Assembly: GCA_951406725.2 (NCBI GenBank)
Contig: OX597814.1
Span: 148,180,001 to 148,244,000, forward strand
Length of the DNA stretch: 64,000 nucleotides
From: Octopus vulgaris
Taxonomy: Eukaryota
Direction of reading: 5' to 3'
Each line of letters starts with the position of its first letter. The stretch's first letter is position 1. Both the position numbers and the translations under genes were made by a program. Below the pieces are notes generated by a model, which was not told the origin of the DNA, searched no databases, and saw only the letters and a list, made by a program, of their open reading frames with translations. This document shows, piece after piece, positions 10,145-52,801 of this stretch.

Positions 10145-10177
<33 letters not shown>

Positions 10178-10399
10178 TCAATATAGGGTGGCAAAAAAAA
10201 ATTTTGTAGAATTCTTTTGCCACCAGCGGCCTAGTGGGAAAAAATTAAATAGTCATAAACCATTTTTAAGTTCAACATCACAATCAAGGAACGGCCATAA
10301 TAGGCCATTCACCCACTAGAAATAACAGCCAAAAGCTTTAACCGCAAAATAACATTAATTCCGTAAACCAGGAGAAAATTGAAAAACATTTACCCTGTA

Positions 10400-10506
10400 A
10401 TTTCTTAGACGATGCACCGTTTCATCTACCGTTTAATGGTAAACTAACCTGATTAAATTAAATCAAGCCAATCCACCATAGGCCCTTAGACTCATCAGTA
10501 AGAAAT
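10400..10506 (-). ncRNA. Type I hammerhead ribozyme, copy 1
   Basis: Minus strand: stem I ATTTCTTA, core CTGATGA, stem II GTCTA..TAGAT, GAAA, stem III CGGTGCATCG, TC, stem I' TAAGAAAT. GUC triplet; predicted cut between 10408 and 10407. Confidence 0.88.
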
Positions 10507-10890
10507 AGCCAAGTCGGAACAGATATTTTTCACGAGGCATTCCTCTTGCTACATCGGCAATATCTGACCTAAAATTTTCAAATCGTCGCACTCGCGCCAA
10601 ATTTATCGGCAGCAAATAAATATAAGCCACCGATTCCATTACGGAACTAACCAGAAAATTCATAATTAATCAATATAGGGTGGCAAAAAAAATTTTGTAG
10701 AATTCTTTTGCCACCAGCGGCCTAGTGGGAAAAAATTAAATAGTCATAAACCATTTTTAAGTTCAACATCACAATCAAGGAACGGCCATAATAGGCCATT
10801 CACCCACTAGAAATAACAGCCAAAAGCTTTAACCGCAAAATAACATTAATTCCGTAAACCAGGAGAAAATTGAAAAACATTTACCCTGTA

Positions 10891-10997
10891 ATTTCTTAGA
10901 CGATGCACCGTTTCATCTACCGTTTAATGGTAAACTAACCTGATTAAATTAAATCAAGCCAATCCACCATAGGCCCTTAGACTCATCAGTAAGAAAT
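10891..10997 (-). ncRNA. Type I hammerhead ribozyme, copy 2
   Basis: Identical to copy 1 at +491; predicted cut between 10899 and 10898. The third copy (11382-11413) retains only the 3' half. Confidence 0.88.
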
Positions 10998-11409
10998 AGC
11001 CAAGTCGGAACAGATATTTTTCACGAGGCATTCCTCTTGCTACCTCGGCAATATCTGACCTAAAATTTTCAAATCGTCGCACTCGCGCCAAATTTATCGG
11101 CAGCAAATAAATATAAGCCACCGATTCCATTACGGAACTAACCAGAAAATTCATAATTAATCAATATAGGGTGGCAAAAAAAATTTTGTAGAATTCTTTT
11201 GCCACCAGCGGCCTAGTGGGAAAAAATTAAATAGTCATAAACCATTTTTAAGTTCAACATCACAATCAAGGAACGGCCATAATAGGCCATTCACCCACTA
11301 GAAATAACAGCCAAAAGCTTTAACCGCAAAATAACATTAATTCCGTAAACCAGGAGAAAATTGAAAAACATTTACCCTGTAATTTCTTAGACGATGCACC
11401 GTTTCATCT

Positions 11410-11460
<51 letters not shown>

Positions 11461-28107: not shown

Positions 28108-28713
28108 GTCATTATAAATTGACATCGAACTCTACTGTGGTGCTGGGCTTTATTAGTGTGCTATCAATGAGCTTTCAGGAAAGTGAAATATAACGTTATA
28201 TTTCACTTTCCTTCCGTTAAGTGTAATGTCATTTCTTCTTGGAAACATCTTTCTGTGGCTATACTAGTAACGGAGCTATTTTTAGCACTAGAGCTATCCA
28301 CATAGTGGTAACTCTCTTATAATTTATGTATAAATTTGTATTATCTCCATAGTTTTATGTGATAAGCCACTTGGTGCCAAATTGATGCTATTATTAAATT
28401 AATATCAAAATTTTCACCTTCATTTATATATATACGTTCTTCACTTGTTTATAACTATTAATATTATAACTAATGTCCATTGTCTGGAAAACTTTCGTCA
28501 CACATATATGACCCCTATGCGACACTTTCCGTCTTCGTGTATACTCTTCATCAGCTTATTCTATTCTCTGATTATTCCAATGGAATAAGTAGAGAAAGAG
28601 AAAAGCGTCGCTTAGTAGGTCACAGATGTGTGACGAAAGATTTCCGAACAATGGACATGAGTTACAATACGAACAGTTATAAACGAGTGAACAATATATA
28701 TATATATATATAT

Positions 28714-29353
28714 TTAAAATCACAATAAGGGTGAAAAAATTGAATATTAATTAATAACATCAATTTAAAACACCAAGTGGTCTAGCGTAAAAAAACTGTG
28801 ATACATTGAAAATTATTAATACAAGCAATAAGAGAGGGACCACATGTGGTCACTCTAACGCTAGAAATAGATCCGCAAAGGGAGTCCACCACTAAAGAAT
28901 TGTTCTCAAGCAATAATTCAACACGCCAAGAAATGTAAGCGGGCAGGACAAATGAAAAGTAACGAAAAAAGAGATTAACTCTATATAATTGTTTCATCGC
29001 TAATAGATTGTGTAATTTTACTTACAAATCATTTTCGAGTCATCGGTAGAGTATATCAAAAATATAATTTGCTGAACCGCACGCCAAAATCCATACGAAG
29101 CCGAGCAAAGGCGAACGGCACAGCCAATTATACTTGCAGTTACGTTCAAATATCCTCATTTCTGGCGCGCTGAAAATACCGGATGTAAATACCACCCCAG
29201 TAATTTACTGCCGGTTTGAGAGCATATTAATTTATAATTAAAATCACAATAATTAAAGTTGAATTAATGCTTGAATTCTTTAGTGGTAGATTCCCTTTGC
29301 GGATCTATTTCTAGCGTTAGAGTGACCACATGTGGTCCCTCTTATTGCTTGTA
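28714..29353 (-). mobile_element. HHR-bearing 524-bp unit plus inverted segment (Penelope-pLTR/retrozyme-like)
   Basis: TTAAAATCACAATAA recurs at 28714 and 29238; 29258-29353 is an inverted copy of 28820-28922; (TA)n on both flanks. Confidence 0.75.
28978..29052 (-). ncRNA. Type I hammerhead ribozyme, slightly degenerate
   Basis: Minus strand: ACTCTA, CCGATGA (one core change), (C)TCG..CGA(T) with inner hairpin, GAAA, CAATTA, TA, TAGAGT. Confidence 0.7.
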
Positions 29354-29411
29354 TATATATATATATATATAAACATACACACACAGAGACACAAAAACAC
29401 ACACATGCATA

Positions 29412-30356: not shown

Positions 30357-31640
30357 TTGTCTATAATATCAAGATCAGCCAAAAAAATGTTTCTGTCCAG
30401 GGAAAGAGAGACAGCTGCAGAAAGGGAAGCAATCCAAGATACGAACAGACTGTGTACTACAAACATCAGAGCATCTCAAAGTGACGAACAGAGGTATGCA
30501 CGACTGACAAGAAATAGGATCTCCACTGCAGAACGAAAATCAGTTGCAACAGCTCAGAGAAGCAACTTCTATGAAGCAGCGTGCTATAGAGCAGCGATCC
30601 AGCAATTCGTTATGCAAATGACACTAGAGTTTCCATTGCTGCAATGAGAGCTGTGTGCATATATTGTAAAGCAAGGAAGTGACCTGGGGAAACACCTGCA
30701 CTATGCTTCAGTAGAGGAAAGATTAAACTCCTGCAATACTCCAACCTTGAAGAAACTGGTGTCAACCACTGCCCAAAGTTCCAAGCACTTCCAAAACAAA
30801 ATGACACAGTAAAATGCTACACAACATATCATATTATTTGGAGCCATAAGAGATATAACTGAGACAGGATTCATGCCAATTTTGAAGGTCTAAAGGTCAG
30901 ATTTATCATGGGATTGTCTCTACTACCTCTGTCAAATGAATCACTAAAATTCCATCAAATATATTTTATGGATGATTCTGAACAAGACGGGTAAGAAAGA
31001 TGCAAGAACACGTCCGGCATCAGGATGAACAATGTAGTGTCTCTGCAAAATATGCTGCATAACAACAACTACCTGATCAGAAGCTTCAAGACTGCGCTTG
31101 AAACAAATTCACCACACTCCATGGATTAGAAGGTAGTAATCAGATCAGGCAAGAAATCATATGTTCAACATGGAGGGATGTTTAAAGCGCATACTGCAAA
31201 GGAAATAGCTGTGCTTCTGGTTGGGCAAGAACATGATAAGTGTGATATTGTCGTCCATCTCAGAGACAGCACACTGATGAGGATTTCCAAAACACACAGA
31301 TCCAATGATGCACTAGAATATCCATTGCTATTCTCTTATAGACAAGATACTTAACACATTGATATTAGATGGACAAACTCCTCAAAGCGAGTTTCATCCA
31401 ATGATTTCTATGCATTCCACATCATGGTCAGGAATCAAGATTCAAACCACATCCTACATTGTAAAGATTTGTTCAGTCAGTTCATTGATGACATGTATAT
31501 AAAAATTGAAAGTGAACGATTACTCTACTTGAGACTGAACCAGAAGAAATTGAAAGAGGAATCATATGCACAACTTCAAGATGCAATCCTGAATGATCAT
31601 GATGTCTCCAATTCATCACCTTTCGTTTTACCGTCTGTTG
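30357..31640 (+). pseudogene. Helitron Rep/helicase N-terminal region, decayed
   Basis: MRAVCIYCKARK*PGETPALCFSRGKIKL, GFMPILKV*/GQIYHGIVSLLP and LFSQFIDDMYIKIESERLLYLRLNQKKLKEESYAQLQDAI...VLPS match Helitron_like_N-region motifs; many stops. The element probably extends left to about 29480. Confidence 0.88.
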
Positions 31641-33018
31641 TGTCAGTATCAATATAATATTCAATAAATGGGTCTCAGTCATATAATGGGTTCTATGCAA
31701 TTCATTTTTATCCAAGCAAGAAGGACAGCGGCAGAGACGAATTGCGAGGAACGGATGTTGTCTTAAATATGTGAACCTGTCCCGAATGTTTGCACCAAAA
31801 TGAAATCTGCTAAATACAACCAAAAATCAAGTGGTGGTGTGAAAAAGATAAGCTTAGTCTATCACTCAAAAGAAAAGAATACAAGGAATCGGAACTTATC
31901 TCACGCTAATCAACCAGCAAGGAACGGTGCTTTATAGATCTATCACAAACGTGCGAAAAATTTTACCATGAATGTGGAACCAGAGCTCAGAGAGCTGGAA
32001 TAAAATATCGCAAGACAACTCTGCTGACGTTCTAGAAACCAATCTACAATCTTAGATTGTTACTAAAATTTAGGGAAATTCCAAGGATAGATATTCAAAG
32101 GAAAGCAACATTTTGCTGGGCAGGATTTGAATTCAAGTCCAACAGAACTAGAACTAATAACGCAAGCCATTATTTATTAGATGCTTCGCCTTGGTTCTAT
32201 TAATCACCTATTTTAGCGTCCGTAAGACGAACTGGAAAACGATCGAAAAGACATTCAAGCAGGGGAATTAGTCCGAAAATACTTAACAATGAGTGGACAC
32301 AGTTAAAGGGCCTTAGAAACCTGATGCCAGCGGTACAATTATTTGGCGTCGTATTGATGTAAGAAACCAATAACAATACAATAAAGGCAAAGGTCATAAA
32401 GACACAGAAACTGAAGAACGCAAGAATCAGTCAAGTAAATATTATAAATATAAAAGGAAAATAAAAGAATCAGAACATAATCGTAGGATTTAGTATGCAG
32501 AATGAAACAATTAAATTAGAGATTATTGTGATATATATTAGTAAAACTCACAGACAATTATTTTAATTGGTTGATAGAAAAAAGAAGAATCAACAATAAA
32601 CAGAAAAACAATGGATATAAATTGTTTACGTAAGCCGCTGGGATTTTAGAAATAATGTCAGAAAAGTCAATAAATCAATCATACATAGATACATACATGC
32701 GTACACACATTGACTAACAAAAGAGTATGTACACACACGCATACACACATATACACACACACTGGCATATCGATATATAGATAAATAGATATACAGATAC
32801 ATACATACAGCGATTGATAGATACATATGTGTTCGTTTATAGATTATTGGTCCCATATACACATATATATGCATATATATTTATGAACGTATATACGCGT
32901 GCACATACAGACAAACATATATACACGCATACATATTATATATAAATGCACATATATACATGCACATAAATATACATACATATGGATACGTATACATATT
33001 TGTATGCATATGTATATA

Positions 33019-42620: not shown

Positions 42621-44459
42621 AGGGGAGAAAGAAAGGAATGTGAAGATATTTAACTCAAGTAACGAGAAATAGAAATTTATCAACTGTAATATTATCATCG
42701 CAAGAATGAGGGAAAAAAGAGGAGGAGGATGTTCATGTTTATTAGTGTATGAGAATTAAGGACAGAAGAAGGGTGGGACATACGACGTTGTAATGAAATA
42801 TAAACCTGGTTAATAAAAGTGAATGGCAAGGAAAAAGCCTGGTTGTAATTATGGTAATAAAGCGTTCAGTTTCTGAAATTTTATAACTTACAAGCATTAC
42901 GTTTCCTTAATTAATAATCTGCTTATTAAAACAGATATGTGAAATATGATAAACAATTTAGTTACTTCTGAAAGTAAACTTGAATTAGCTAAATCCTTAT
43001 TTACGACTATAATTTAATTTAAATTGGCGCAAGCATCGGTGCTTGAAAATTAACTCGAAGTATATACCAAGTAGCTTTTGATAATAAGGATTAAGTCTCC
43101 TTTGCCATTGATAAATTATACTGAAACTTAAGAAAAATACATCTATCCTGCTGTGATATAAATATGCCTTAATTTTCTACAGATTCGCATCTGGTGGATA
43201 TTGAAATGGCGTCTCAACTAATAATTACGTCAAATATCTACTGAGATCTTTGATAAATAGACTAATTATACATACTTCTTCAATTTTAGCATTTACTTTG
43301 CATTTGGTTTTATAATTATATAAAGCAGAGTAGCCATAAAAGAAACTATTTTGCCTATATGGACACCTCAATAACTTCAAGAAAAGGAAGGGTGCATTTC
43401 AAGACTAAGACATACATACTGTCGTGTATGGCCACAGCAAAGATATACTTACTTAATTTCGTCTGTTCAGAGCTTATCTTTAGTTAATTCCGGGCCATAC
43501 ATTGTCAATTCTATCATGTTATAATCTGAGAATATTGTAGATAATTCCCACATAGTTTGTAAAATAGAGGTTTAGAATATTTTTGGGATCTTTTCAATTG
43601 TGAAGCCAGGACCACAGATCTTTCTACTTAACTAAATATTCTGAAACTTCGTATGCTGATAGAGTCTAGCAAAACAAGACACAGGTTGGAACTAGTTTAT
43701 TTGAGAAAAATCTATTTTATGACTTTAATCGTAGATTAAAACTGCGAATTTTAACCAATCAGATTGTTTGTTTTCATGTGTAAAACGTGACTGCATTCTA
43801 TTAGTGTGACGTAGAAAGCGCTTTTGTGACGTACTAACGTTCGGAAAACTAAACAAACACAGAACGTAACGGCAGACGAAATACGGCTACGCATTTCGCC
43901 CGGCGTGCTAACGTTTCTGCCATCTCTTTGCTTTTTTAATATTAAATTTCTTGCCTTTTGCACAAATAAATACAATAAGTGAAATGAAACGCATTAGCTT
44001 AGAAACAAAATCTTGTTAGAAGCCTCGTCACTGAGATGCCACTTCTTAATAGCAAACGAAAGCAAGTACTAACAGAATGGAAACATTTTCAATTTAATAC
44101 ATGTGGCTTATTAACTAGTTTTAAATATTGTTATTAGAAGGTGGCTGACTATAGGATCCTGGAAACATGAGTACGTTAAATAATTAGAAGGAGATTTCAC
44201 GGAGACATGCGGCTTGTTTACATTTAAGATGTTTAATACGTCACCAAATTGGTGGTCGAGACGGAGTAAATAAAATAAAGCCGAATGACGGAATATCATT
44301 GGTTAAAATTCTAATTATTAAACAACGTTAAACTTAGAAGTTACAATTCCGTTTTCATACAATTAAGTTTACTTTTGACACATTCTACCAGTATACGAAG
44401 TTTCAAATTGTTTGGTTCAGTAGGAAAAATTTGAAAAAACTGGCTTCAGAATTGAAAAG

Positions 44460-44990
44460 ATCCTATTTTTGTGCCTGGTTGGAGAGAGTATGATCTGCTC
44501 CACGAATAGCATTTTCGTAAGATCTAGTAGAGATTCTTCTTGATTTCGCTCTCTGTGCGTCATTCCTGGGGTTATATTTTCCTCAGGCCACCTGATGTTG
44601 GGCAAGTCGAAGTCGACCGTCAGGAATATAGTAATACGTTCATCCAATTGTGTTAGTACTTCCTTTATCGCACTGAGGTTTTCCTCAAATTTTCCACTAT
44701 CATTTGAGGCATCAGACGGGCAATATATTGTGCATATCACTATAACAATTTGCTTTAGATGTACTATGAGTGAGACACACACAGGAGTTGGAGTTCGATA
44801 ACAGGGTCAATGGTGTGACATCTTCTTGGATGTACATTATTCCACCGTGATTTCTTTTTCTTCTGTCTGTACGGATGATAGCATACATTGGTATGTGTAT
44901 CTCCGCATCACTTATATCCGCAGATAGATGTGTTTCTGTAAGTGCAATGCATATAGTTTGATTACATGCAGAAAGATTTTTCGTGTGTTC
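44460..44990 (-). pseudogene. LINE ORF2 apurinic-endonuclease (APE) domain fragment, CR1/L2/Jockey-like
   Basis: IALTETHL...YAIIRTDRRKRNHGG; IYCP...IFLTVDFDLPNIRW...QIILSPTRHKN; frameshifted. Confidence 0.85.
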
Positions 44991-45456
44991 AGTTTTGCAT
45001 TTGCTGTTGTTCTGCAGCAGGCTTAGGTCACAATACATGTATTAAGGGAATAGGCGGAATTTTCCAACTCTTCAAAATATATTTATACATATATATGCAA
45101 CCATTGAAAATTTCAGACATGTAGTTCAATAGAGTGCTAGGTGTCTTAGATGTGGACAGGATCTGTGCTCTTTCATGCAAAAAAGTTTACATTTATTCTA
45201 TCCATTCACAGAAGGTGTGGATTTCTCAATTATTTTCCATTTAATCACATGCGGTGTTTCGTTATCTTTCAAAATCCATATGTAGCTAGCCAACTTAGTA
45301 TCTTTATTTTAGTCCCTATGTCCGAAGGAGGCTATGTGATTGCCGTGTGTGTATATTTGTAAGAAAAATTTTAGTGTCTAAACGACCAGTACAACATACA
45401 GTTTTCAGTTTCAAAACGGCTATTTGAAACTCATACCAGAGTCACTTCCTGTAAAT

Positions 45457-51082: not shown

Positions 51083-52480
51083 CGTGTGTGTGTGTGTTTG
51101 AGTCTTCACGTATGTGTTTATCTGTTTTAACGCTTCTGCAGAGAGTAAGAGACGAGCTGGAAAAAAAAATAAAATGAATAACTTTAAGAAAGACATGTGA
51201 TTAATAGAGACAAAATTAATGGTAAGTCATGGAAATATAACCAAGTGAAAGACAGAAGATAATAGAGTTTGTAAAGTAAGATAATATTCTAAATACTGCT
51301 TCTAGTGTTATACATTGTTCTGCAGAACTCGCCTATCTCTCAACATCAGTTAGATTTTACTGGGTTTAAGTGAGACGAATGGTGTTCTGCAAATGCATGA
51401 TTCATAGCTGCAGCTGCTATTATGATGTTAATAATTTTGCATCGCAGCCACGTCTCTCTAGCACTGAAACCAAAGTTCCTCATGATAAACGATTCTCCTG
51501 TTAGTATAGCATCGTTTTCACTAGCACCTTGAGTGGATTTTGAAAGAAGGGAAGCTGTTCGAAGCAGAAGAAAAATATTTCGAAATAGTGTAGAGAATAA
51601 TTTCATTTATTTTGCAAGTGAATTATTTATCTCATCGGAGTTATACAACTTCACGATAGCTTGAGATGATGATTGTCAATCTATAAAGGGAAAATAATGT
51701 CTCCAGACCTCGGAATTTCATTGGTTACTACAGATCACATGCGACACTACTAACACAGTGCAATCATACAGATCACAAATTATTCTTACAACTAATAAGA
51801 ATATATCCGTCTTCAAGGGATACGAATGTTCTTCCTTTTAAAGGAAATTCCATTTTGGCATATATTTGCCAAAGATTTGAACTCACAATATTAGCAATTA
51901 AGTCTACCATTTTGCAATTGAAATAGCAGATACATGGAAATTTCTTCAATGTTTCATTTTATTAATTGTTGCAAGGCATTAGCAAGGAAGTACTTCTCTC
52001 TACACATTGAAGTTATCACTCAGTAGTGTAGCAATTTCAGGATCTTAATTATTTGTATTGCGTGTGTATGATAGTAGCTACACATGACACTTTCCTTGCA
52101 GCAGTATTAATGTATCATAAGATCGATTTCTCTTCAGTTTTTTAACAAGAAAATTATACTTTATAAATTTTGTTTCATTGCTCTTGTTTCTACTTCTAGC
52201 ATAAAAGTCAATCGGTATTGATACAATTTGAAATATGATCTCTCTGGCTCGATATATGTCTTTACCTACTGATTCTATGTTTGTTCTGTAGATTTAGAAA
52301 GTCTATATGCAAAGACTGTTGTTGGAGATGGTAAACTGGGGACTTGCCAAATACCAAATGGATAAAATGTAGCATTTTCGAAATAAATTTTCTGCAATAA
52401 CGAGATGGTTAATTCTTTAATACTAAATTATCTTAGTCCTCTGTCTTTCTTTTGTATATTTTATGTATATGGTACTAGTT

Positions 52481-52801
52481 TTAATTAAAACAAGTTTCAC
52501 TTGTGCCTCTGAGAACCTAATTTATGTAATAACCTGCTCGCGTTGTGGATATAACTACATTGGATATACGAGTATGTCCTTGAGACGGAGAACGACTGCA
52601 CATAAAGAGCAAATCTGTTCCACGAAATACGGGCAAATTCCTTTCAGTGAACATATAGAAAAATGTGCAGATAACATCAAATGAAATTGCACAGTCTTCT
52701 CCTTCTACAAGTGCAAAAACATAATTTCTCCCCAAGAACGTTTAAATAAAGAAACTATTTTCATCGAAAAATACAGAACAGGTCTTAATTTGCTCGCATA
52801 A
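52481..52801 (+). pseudogene. Penelope-like element GIY-YIG endonuclease (C-terminal domain), 5'-truncated, one internal stop
   Basis: FTCASENLIYVITCSRCGYNYIGYTSMSLRRRTTAHKEQI..PFSEHIEKC..*..ERLNKETIFIEKYRTGLN shows IY..CxxC..YIG, catalytic R and E, and terminal GLN. Confidence 0.88.

Follow-up and report, generated by a model that had tools for sequence, protein, structure and literature searches.

The copies of a 524-bp hammerhead repeat in the Octopus vulgaris genome end at one or other of two fixed sites, and in the loci scored the two outer ends of an inverted insertion, where both are canonical, never use the same one, a rule that the autonomous Penelope-like elements (PLEs) of this genome also follow. 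We came to this family from a single copy in a window of 64,000 nucleotides (the window here meaning the whole stretch of DNA analysed), and it is the junction rule of the family together with its long tail, rather than the window copy, that is of main interest. We think it probable that the window element is a copy of a non-LTR retrozyme, here a ~525-bp hammerhead repeat, and that an autonomous PLE, most likely one of the Hydra clade, supplied the reverse transcriptase (RT) and GIY-YIG endonuclease (EN) for its insertion. The enzyme, its clade and the double priming proposed below are what we infer from the insertion junctions and from comparison with the PLEs.

The window copy is flanked on either side by (TA)n and, read on the minus strand, consists of a 97-nt inverted arm, a 5-nt linker, a 15-nt stub and a 524-nt unit. 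The inverted arm (29258–29354, plus strand) is inwardly truncated, running from unit position 419 (u419) to u316, and its outer end is the fixed end site A. BLAST aligns it with u419–u316 of the unit (window 28819–28922) with 94 of 104 columns identical and seven gap columns (E 3e-35), and one substitution that departs from the family majority (u412) is common to the inverted and direct arms. The linker (29253–29257) forms the head-to-head junction, and is followed by the stub (29252–29238, minus strand), an exact match to the last 15 nt of the unit (u510–524) that makes the insertion a partial tandem. The full non-coding unit (28714–29237, minus strand) has a GC content of 35%, differs from the family majority sequence by 4.2% (the mean for 29 units is 3.7%) and contains a type I hammerhead motif, located by family alignment at 28978–29052 on the minus strand. 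The PLE-sense tail, u420–524 (28714–28818, minus strand), is present at one end only. The target tract spans 28694–28713 at the site-B end and 29352–29371 at the site-A end, where pure TA hides any target duplication. The layout described in the first-pass annotation, namely an inverted piece (97 bp by our measure), a unit tail, a full unit with a hammerhead and then (TA)n, was therefore borne out. Its '15-bp unit tail' does exist as a 15-nt copy of the unit end, but it is the remnant of another unit that precedes this one head to tail, and the tail in the PLE sense is u420–524.

Searching the animal's own genome (2.8 Gb, 227 contigs) with the unit gave 1,989 first-look candidates, of which the best 40 were scored; these yielded 106 matches, mostly 88–96% identical to the unit. 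A second query of 112 nt gave 1,119 first-look candidates. The 55 distinct loci analysed are the best-scoring matches of the two queries and form a non-random sample. Left out before counting were L024 (the same place as L004), L022 (whose flanks match those of L017), L150 and L083 (both of which extend past the locus edge) and 13 of the 30 loci of the 112-nt query, which were repeat places. No reading frame of a doubled unit stays free of stops for more than 63 codons, so the family is ORF-less, and the copies are mostly monomers to dimers. In 29 of the 55 loci the end of a unit runs into its own start, indicating that the whole element is a cycle of approximately 525 nt. Short, non-coding, head-to-tail units with less than 50% GC are a feature of retrozymes, and are what is found here. 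One of the excluded loci, L150 (G000:C13:22646199-22649310), holds a rearranged array of this family with a repeated block that is composed of direct and inverted pieces; it lies approximately 1–2.5 kb from a Neptune-type GIY-YIG match. Two further elements, both in TA, were seen in L072: a 67% relative of the 3' half of the unit (L072:1757-1986) and, separately, a small element (L072:850-1020) that has a hammerhead and an inverted arm.

An inverted truncated copy combined with a partial tandem had been put forward as a Penelope-type integration signature, with the suggestion that junction types be scored across genomic copies and that inverted arms of fixed form, as in a MITE, would speak against it. 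Scoring of the 55 best-scoring loci upheld the signature: 29 are tandem and 39 carry an inverted arm, 20 of the latter being tandem as well. The arms are not fixed, since they range from 27 to 479 bp in 34 distinct lengths and are absent from the other 16 loci; the outer end of the arm is constant and the inner end variable. The outer ends of the copies lie at site A (u419) or at site B (u~524), some 105 nt apart. Both ends are canonical in 35 of the 39 inverted loci, and these comprise 25 A/B and 10 B/A combinations with no A/A and no B/B, so that every one of the 35 has a tail on one side only. The remaining four have a non-canonical end.

The same pattern was seen in a second hammerhead family, present in the window as a tandem array of 2.5 units of 491 bp that are 99% identical (10170–11413), with intact hammerheads of the long-helix-II type (C3 at 10989 and 10498). 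Its 942 candidates include copies that are 99–100% identical and arrays of at least 17 units; the family is very young, and two consecutive complete hammerheads are present in 30 of 30 loci. Inverted arms occur in 23 of the 30, the end sites are 106 nt apart, and 11 A/B and 8 B/A insertions give different sites in 19 of 19. Taking both families together, the chance of 54 different-site pairs out of 54 at fixed margins is 1e-14. The 524-bp unit had been called 'related' to the 491-bp one; this holds for architecture, but beyond a short AT-rich end there is no significant BLAST similarity, and MAFFT gave no meaningful alignment of the two units.

Every one of the 55 loci has a TA run within 20 nt of its right end. 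A looser first test scored target duplications in 21 of 85 cases against 10.4 in shuffled sequence. Under a strict test, in which the duplicated TA must contain an internal interruption and 200 shuffles served as the control, interrupted duplications were found in 9 of 55 loci against 0.92 in the shuffles (maximum 4); they measure 11–19 nt, and seven of the nine are 14–17 nt. The 491-bp family has such duplications (15 nt) in 2 of 30 loci against 0.09 shuffled. A microsatellite target combined with target-site duplication, which is a PLE feature, is thus present in the 524-bp family.

These structures would be produced by double priming, or 'twin priming'. The enzyme would nick both strands of the (TA)n tract about 14–15 nt apart, and each 3' end would then prime reverse transcription within the repeat RNA, one of them starting at site A and the other ~105 nt downstream, at site B. 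Joined head to head, the two variably truncated cDNAs would give the direct and the inverted arm, leaving a duplicated target and a tail at just one end. Multimeric or circular RNA could supply the partial tandem, and if the enzyme acted as a dimer on a single RNA, this would account for the two ends never using the same site. The accessible parts of PMC11167929 describe a PLE protein that in vitro nicks and extends both target strands, that starts reverse transcription at two internal sites on the RNA which delimit the genomic tail, and that is predicted to be a dimer; insertion in that system did not require ribozyme cleavage.

The hammerhead of the 524-bp family is of type I, with a 6-bp helix I and a helix II insert of ~44 nt that opens with a U-U mismatch; in the family alignment helix III has 2 bp and a palindromic tetraloop. 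Complete motifs, 61 in all, were found in 49 of the 55 loci, and the core is intact in 43 of them. In the usual hammerhead numbering, C3, G5, A9, A13, A14, A15.1, C15.2 and U16.1 are invariant in all 61, and position 7 is occupied by all four bases. The helix II pair 10.2–11.2 is U-A in 53 motifs and C-G in eight, with no mismatches, and among 14 hand-picked copies, in which 96.6% of cells pair, this is the only pair to have changed on both sides. A consensus lacking the hammerhead, which had been named as evidence against the original reading, was therefore not seen. In the window copy, where the predicted cut lies between 28984 and 28983, there are two changes, U4C at 29045 (found in 14 of the 61 motifs) and G16.2A at 28986 (1 of 61), the second of which breaks the C15.2–G16.2 pair of helix III. 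With these changes the window hammerhead is probably inactive, and we regard the copy as an ordinary, probably dead, member of its family.

The minimum-energy fold of an isolated near-majority motif contains other hairpins in place of the hammerhead, which makes efficient cleavage by a monomer doubtful; assistance by dimerisation or by protein is described for such motifs in the available parts of PMC4209133 and PMC11167929. Two direct hammerheads occur in only 4 of the 55 loci. The window copy does not have the two consecutive complete hammerheads that serve as the criterion for an 'active' element in the accessible text of a recent preprint (bioRxiv 10.64898/2026.07.22.740005), and the direct arm starts within 5 nt of the cut site in 1 of 55 loci. 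Rfam reported no hammerhead in the element, nor among the 150 listed of its 224 window matches, probably because the long helix II defeats the models. An expression query, whose segment also took in a flanking high-copy repeat, listed no RNA record; in a comparison of sequencing runs as assembled contigs, bins 1511–2023 correspond to the unit and the ranking of runs is confounded by that repeat. Ribozyme activity of the family, and any circular RNA, are best described as putative.

A search of the genome for GIY-YIG domains gave 6,136 candidates. The leading group is a young family of 781-aa RT-EN proteins with a CX4CxxC linker and many intact frames, which by motif appears to be Neptune-like. 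Its targets are (TA)n, the end sites differ in all 8 of the inverted loci seen among 45 (scored by eye), and its tail is ~35 nt; target duplications, in 1 of 43 loci, are not above chance. A strict scan of its 3' region found no hammerhead of its own, the one match (at L064) belonging to an insertion of a different, Hydra-like type. That nested element, which had been considered as a third non-autonomous family and was rejected as such when an upstream ORF was found, belongs to a PLE of ~980 aa, of which it forms the 3' end and which has RWK, DKT, CxCX5C, CxxC and CxH motifs, (TA)n targets and a hammerhead. These motifs define the Hydra clade (PMC8557442, in the parts available), and by motifs rather than by a tree the element can be placed as Hydra-like.

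Two such families were analysed. The first (L283-L296; ORF in L284, 980 aa) has several intact frames of ~980 aa with asparagine-rich inserts, a 3' UTR of ~1.7 kb and 18,040 first-look candidates, and is much larger and more abundant here than the Hydra elements that have been described (<3 kb). Its end sites differ in 27 of 27 cases among 44 loci, with a tail of ~113–117 nt, part of this sample having been picked by a query that contains the tail at the right end. It carries a long-helix-II hammerhead, and its older copies share helix III, loop and cleavage triplet with the 524-bp family. The second (L304-L322) is young, with 778-aa frames and 17,125 candidates; different end sites are used in 7 of 7 cases among 19 loci and the tail is 152 nt. 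It too has a long-helix-II hammerhead, and U4C is present in five of the six motifs printed, indicating that this variant spreads in autonomous elements as well. Target duplications were counted in 4 of 39 Hydra loci, a raw figure without a shuffle comparison.

Trans-mobilisation of the unit by PLE enzymes, as the first-pass annotation proposed, is therefore consistent with the end rule that this ORF-less unit shares with autonomous PLEs, but a partner sharing its sequence was not found. Among 150 PLE loci (30 + 20 from the GIY-YIG searches, 32 of Hydra-like family 1 and 68 further Hydra-type, in a genome that holds more PLE families) none has sequence in register with the unit; a few unit matches near PLE loci were considered as shared sequence and rejected as separate insertions nearby. 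The expected linkage to PLE ORFs did not hold up either: within flanks of 1.5–2 kb, Neptune-type fragments lie near 3 of 56 loci and Hydra protein fragments near 3 of 56, which appears incidental and which we read as a sign of shared TA targets. The only PLE coding sequence in the window is a Neptune-type GIY-YIG fragment (52478–52798) that is 50% identical to the 781-aa family. The 105-nt tail has no exact match in the Hydra families (113–117 and 152 nt). Hydra PLEs are nonetheless the likely mover, favoured, not proven, by tail size and by the build of their ribozymes.

The same double priming might have been carried out by a Neptune-like or another unsampled PLE outside the Hydra clade, which we consider unlikely, though far from negligible. 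The Neptune-like family is young and intact, targets (TA)n and obeys the end rule in all eight inverted loci, and it may be that the RNA rather than the enzyme sets tail length; however, its own tail is ~35 nt, its 3' region is without a hammerhead in the strict scan, and it has no sequence in common with the unit. It is less probable still that the unit is only what remains at the 3' end (a truncated stump, or pLTR) of some autonomous PLE yet to be discovered, its copies made in cis from coding transcripts. Truncated PLE stumps with inverted arms are indeed common in this genome, and scoring covered the best 40 candidates per search, but the end-to-start junctions in 29 of 55 loci close an ORF-less cycle of 525 nt, and in no locus examined for junctions does the unit continue into coding sequence.

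That the inverted arm was made from one cDNA that folded back or primed itself, or by recombination after insertion, seems to us highly improbable. Self-priming has been proposed for head-to-head PLE palindromes (PMC3846280, in the parts available). Variants of an inverted arm recur in the direct arm of the same locus in 97 of 197 comparisons, against 479 of 7,461 for other loci, which indicates that both arms stem from one donor lineage (one RNA, or two RNAs of one donor), and fold-back would predict this sharing too. It is contradicted by five loci (L023, L116, L148, L165 and L175) in which neither arm contains the other, excluding simple fold-back there, and it leaves unexplained the constant use of different fixed sites at the two outer ends. 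Almost no credence can be given to a DNA element of MITE or Helitron type that ends in terminal inverted repeats and has acquired its hammerhead-like motif by chance. The window copy taken by itself, with its ~100-bp inverted arms, TA site and a hairpin near CTAG, could be mistaken for one; yet across the family the arms vary from a few tens to several hundred base pairs or are missing, the duplications are ~15 nt rather than TA, and the core of the hammerhead is preserved, in contrast to position 7, where any base occurs. An arm with a fixed outer and a variable inner end rules out a MITE. PLE-driven double priming, probably by a Hydra-like enzyme, is the reading retained below.

In its sequence features the 524-bp family fits the non-LTR retrozymes, and it appears to act like a non-autonomous PLE. 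With the animal non-LTR retrozymes (Cervera and de la Peña 2020, PMC7229834; Li, Clavereau and Pollet, bioRxiv 10.64898/2026.07.22.740005), as far as the available parts of these sources describe them, it has in common a type I hammerhead, short units of low GC content that are non-coding and arranged head to tail, target duplications of more than 4 bp and PLEs as proposed movers; it differs in its 525-bp unit, its ~44-nt helix II insert and its mostly monomeric to dimeric copies. The likeness lies in sequence features, with cleavage and circles predicted. The accessible text of PMC7229834, in which PLE mobilisation of retrozymes is proposed, does not use the word 'inverted', whereas inverted arms are found here in 39 of 55 loci. 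Retrozyme integration has so far been argued from co-occurrence and pLTR homology, as in the accessible parts of the preprint; the evidence presented here is of insertion junctions without pLTR homology, the scars matching those that this genome's own autonomous PLEs leave.

Compared with insertions of EN+ PLEs, as described in the parts available of PMC8557442, PMC3846280 and PMC11167929, the family shares the partial tandem, the inverted 5'-truncated copy, the tail at one end, the microsatellite target and the two RT start sites. It is unlike them in having no ORF and a tail of ~105 nt rather than 30–40 nt (31 nt in PMC3846280), and the either/or use of sites, qualitative in those papers as far as they were accessible, is counted here. 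The Hydra clade (PMC8557442, same parts) resembles the unit in its long tail and similar ribozyme build and has no detectable sequence in common with it. Non-autonomous Chlamys elements such as MRC1 likewise have pLTRs and multicopy head-to-tail insertions; however, their 3' ends are generally similar to that of an autonomous family, a likeness not found for the unit among the 150 PLE loci, and most Chlamys have no canonical hammerhead (PMC8557442, same parts). Earlier publications cover the inverted-plus-tail structure, non-autonomous PLEs and trans action (PMC8557442, PMC3846280 and PMC8969392, in the parts available). Retrozymes moved by PLEs and the inverted-plus-tail structure are thus known; for PLE tails of 100–150 nt and for a counted either/or rule we found no earlier report in a search that took in few subscription journals and repeat databases.

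We tentatively extend the proposal, as a possibility that we would not yet favour, to a general one: Hydra PLEs might have a 100–150-nt tail and a dimeric enzyme that primes both target strands on one RNA, always one per fixed site, and unrelated ribozyme repeats might hijack them through this two-site geometry and a long-helix-II hammerhead in place of partner sequence. If hijacking by two-site geometry is true, the junctions themselves offer a direct test of retrozyme movement in animals and of the way in which PLE inverted structures arise. Strictly different end sites, together with tails 3–4 times the described length, yield a sharply defined prediction for the in vitro assay of PLE activity that has been published, and the 491-bp family, with its near-identical copies, is a ready substrate and the best one for experiment.

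Several other features of the window were recorded. Adjoining the copy, 28439–28695 is an element with diverged inverted ends of ~80 bp and a hammerhead-like core (28554–28526, minus strand), which has a 69% relative in L059 and is possibly another PLE-type stump. The segment 28250–28430 is, by eye, an old diverged relative of the 3' part of the unit in opposite orientation, and is absent from the BLAST list. Broken frames on the minus strand at 44417–45041 resemble a LINE AP-endonuclease, and the plus strand at 31355–31657 has a candidate fragment of a Helitron-like helicase.
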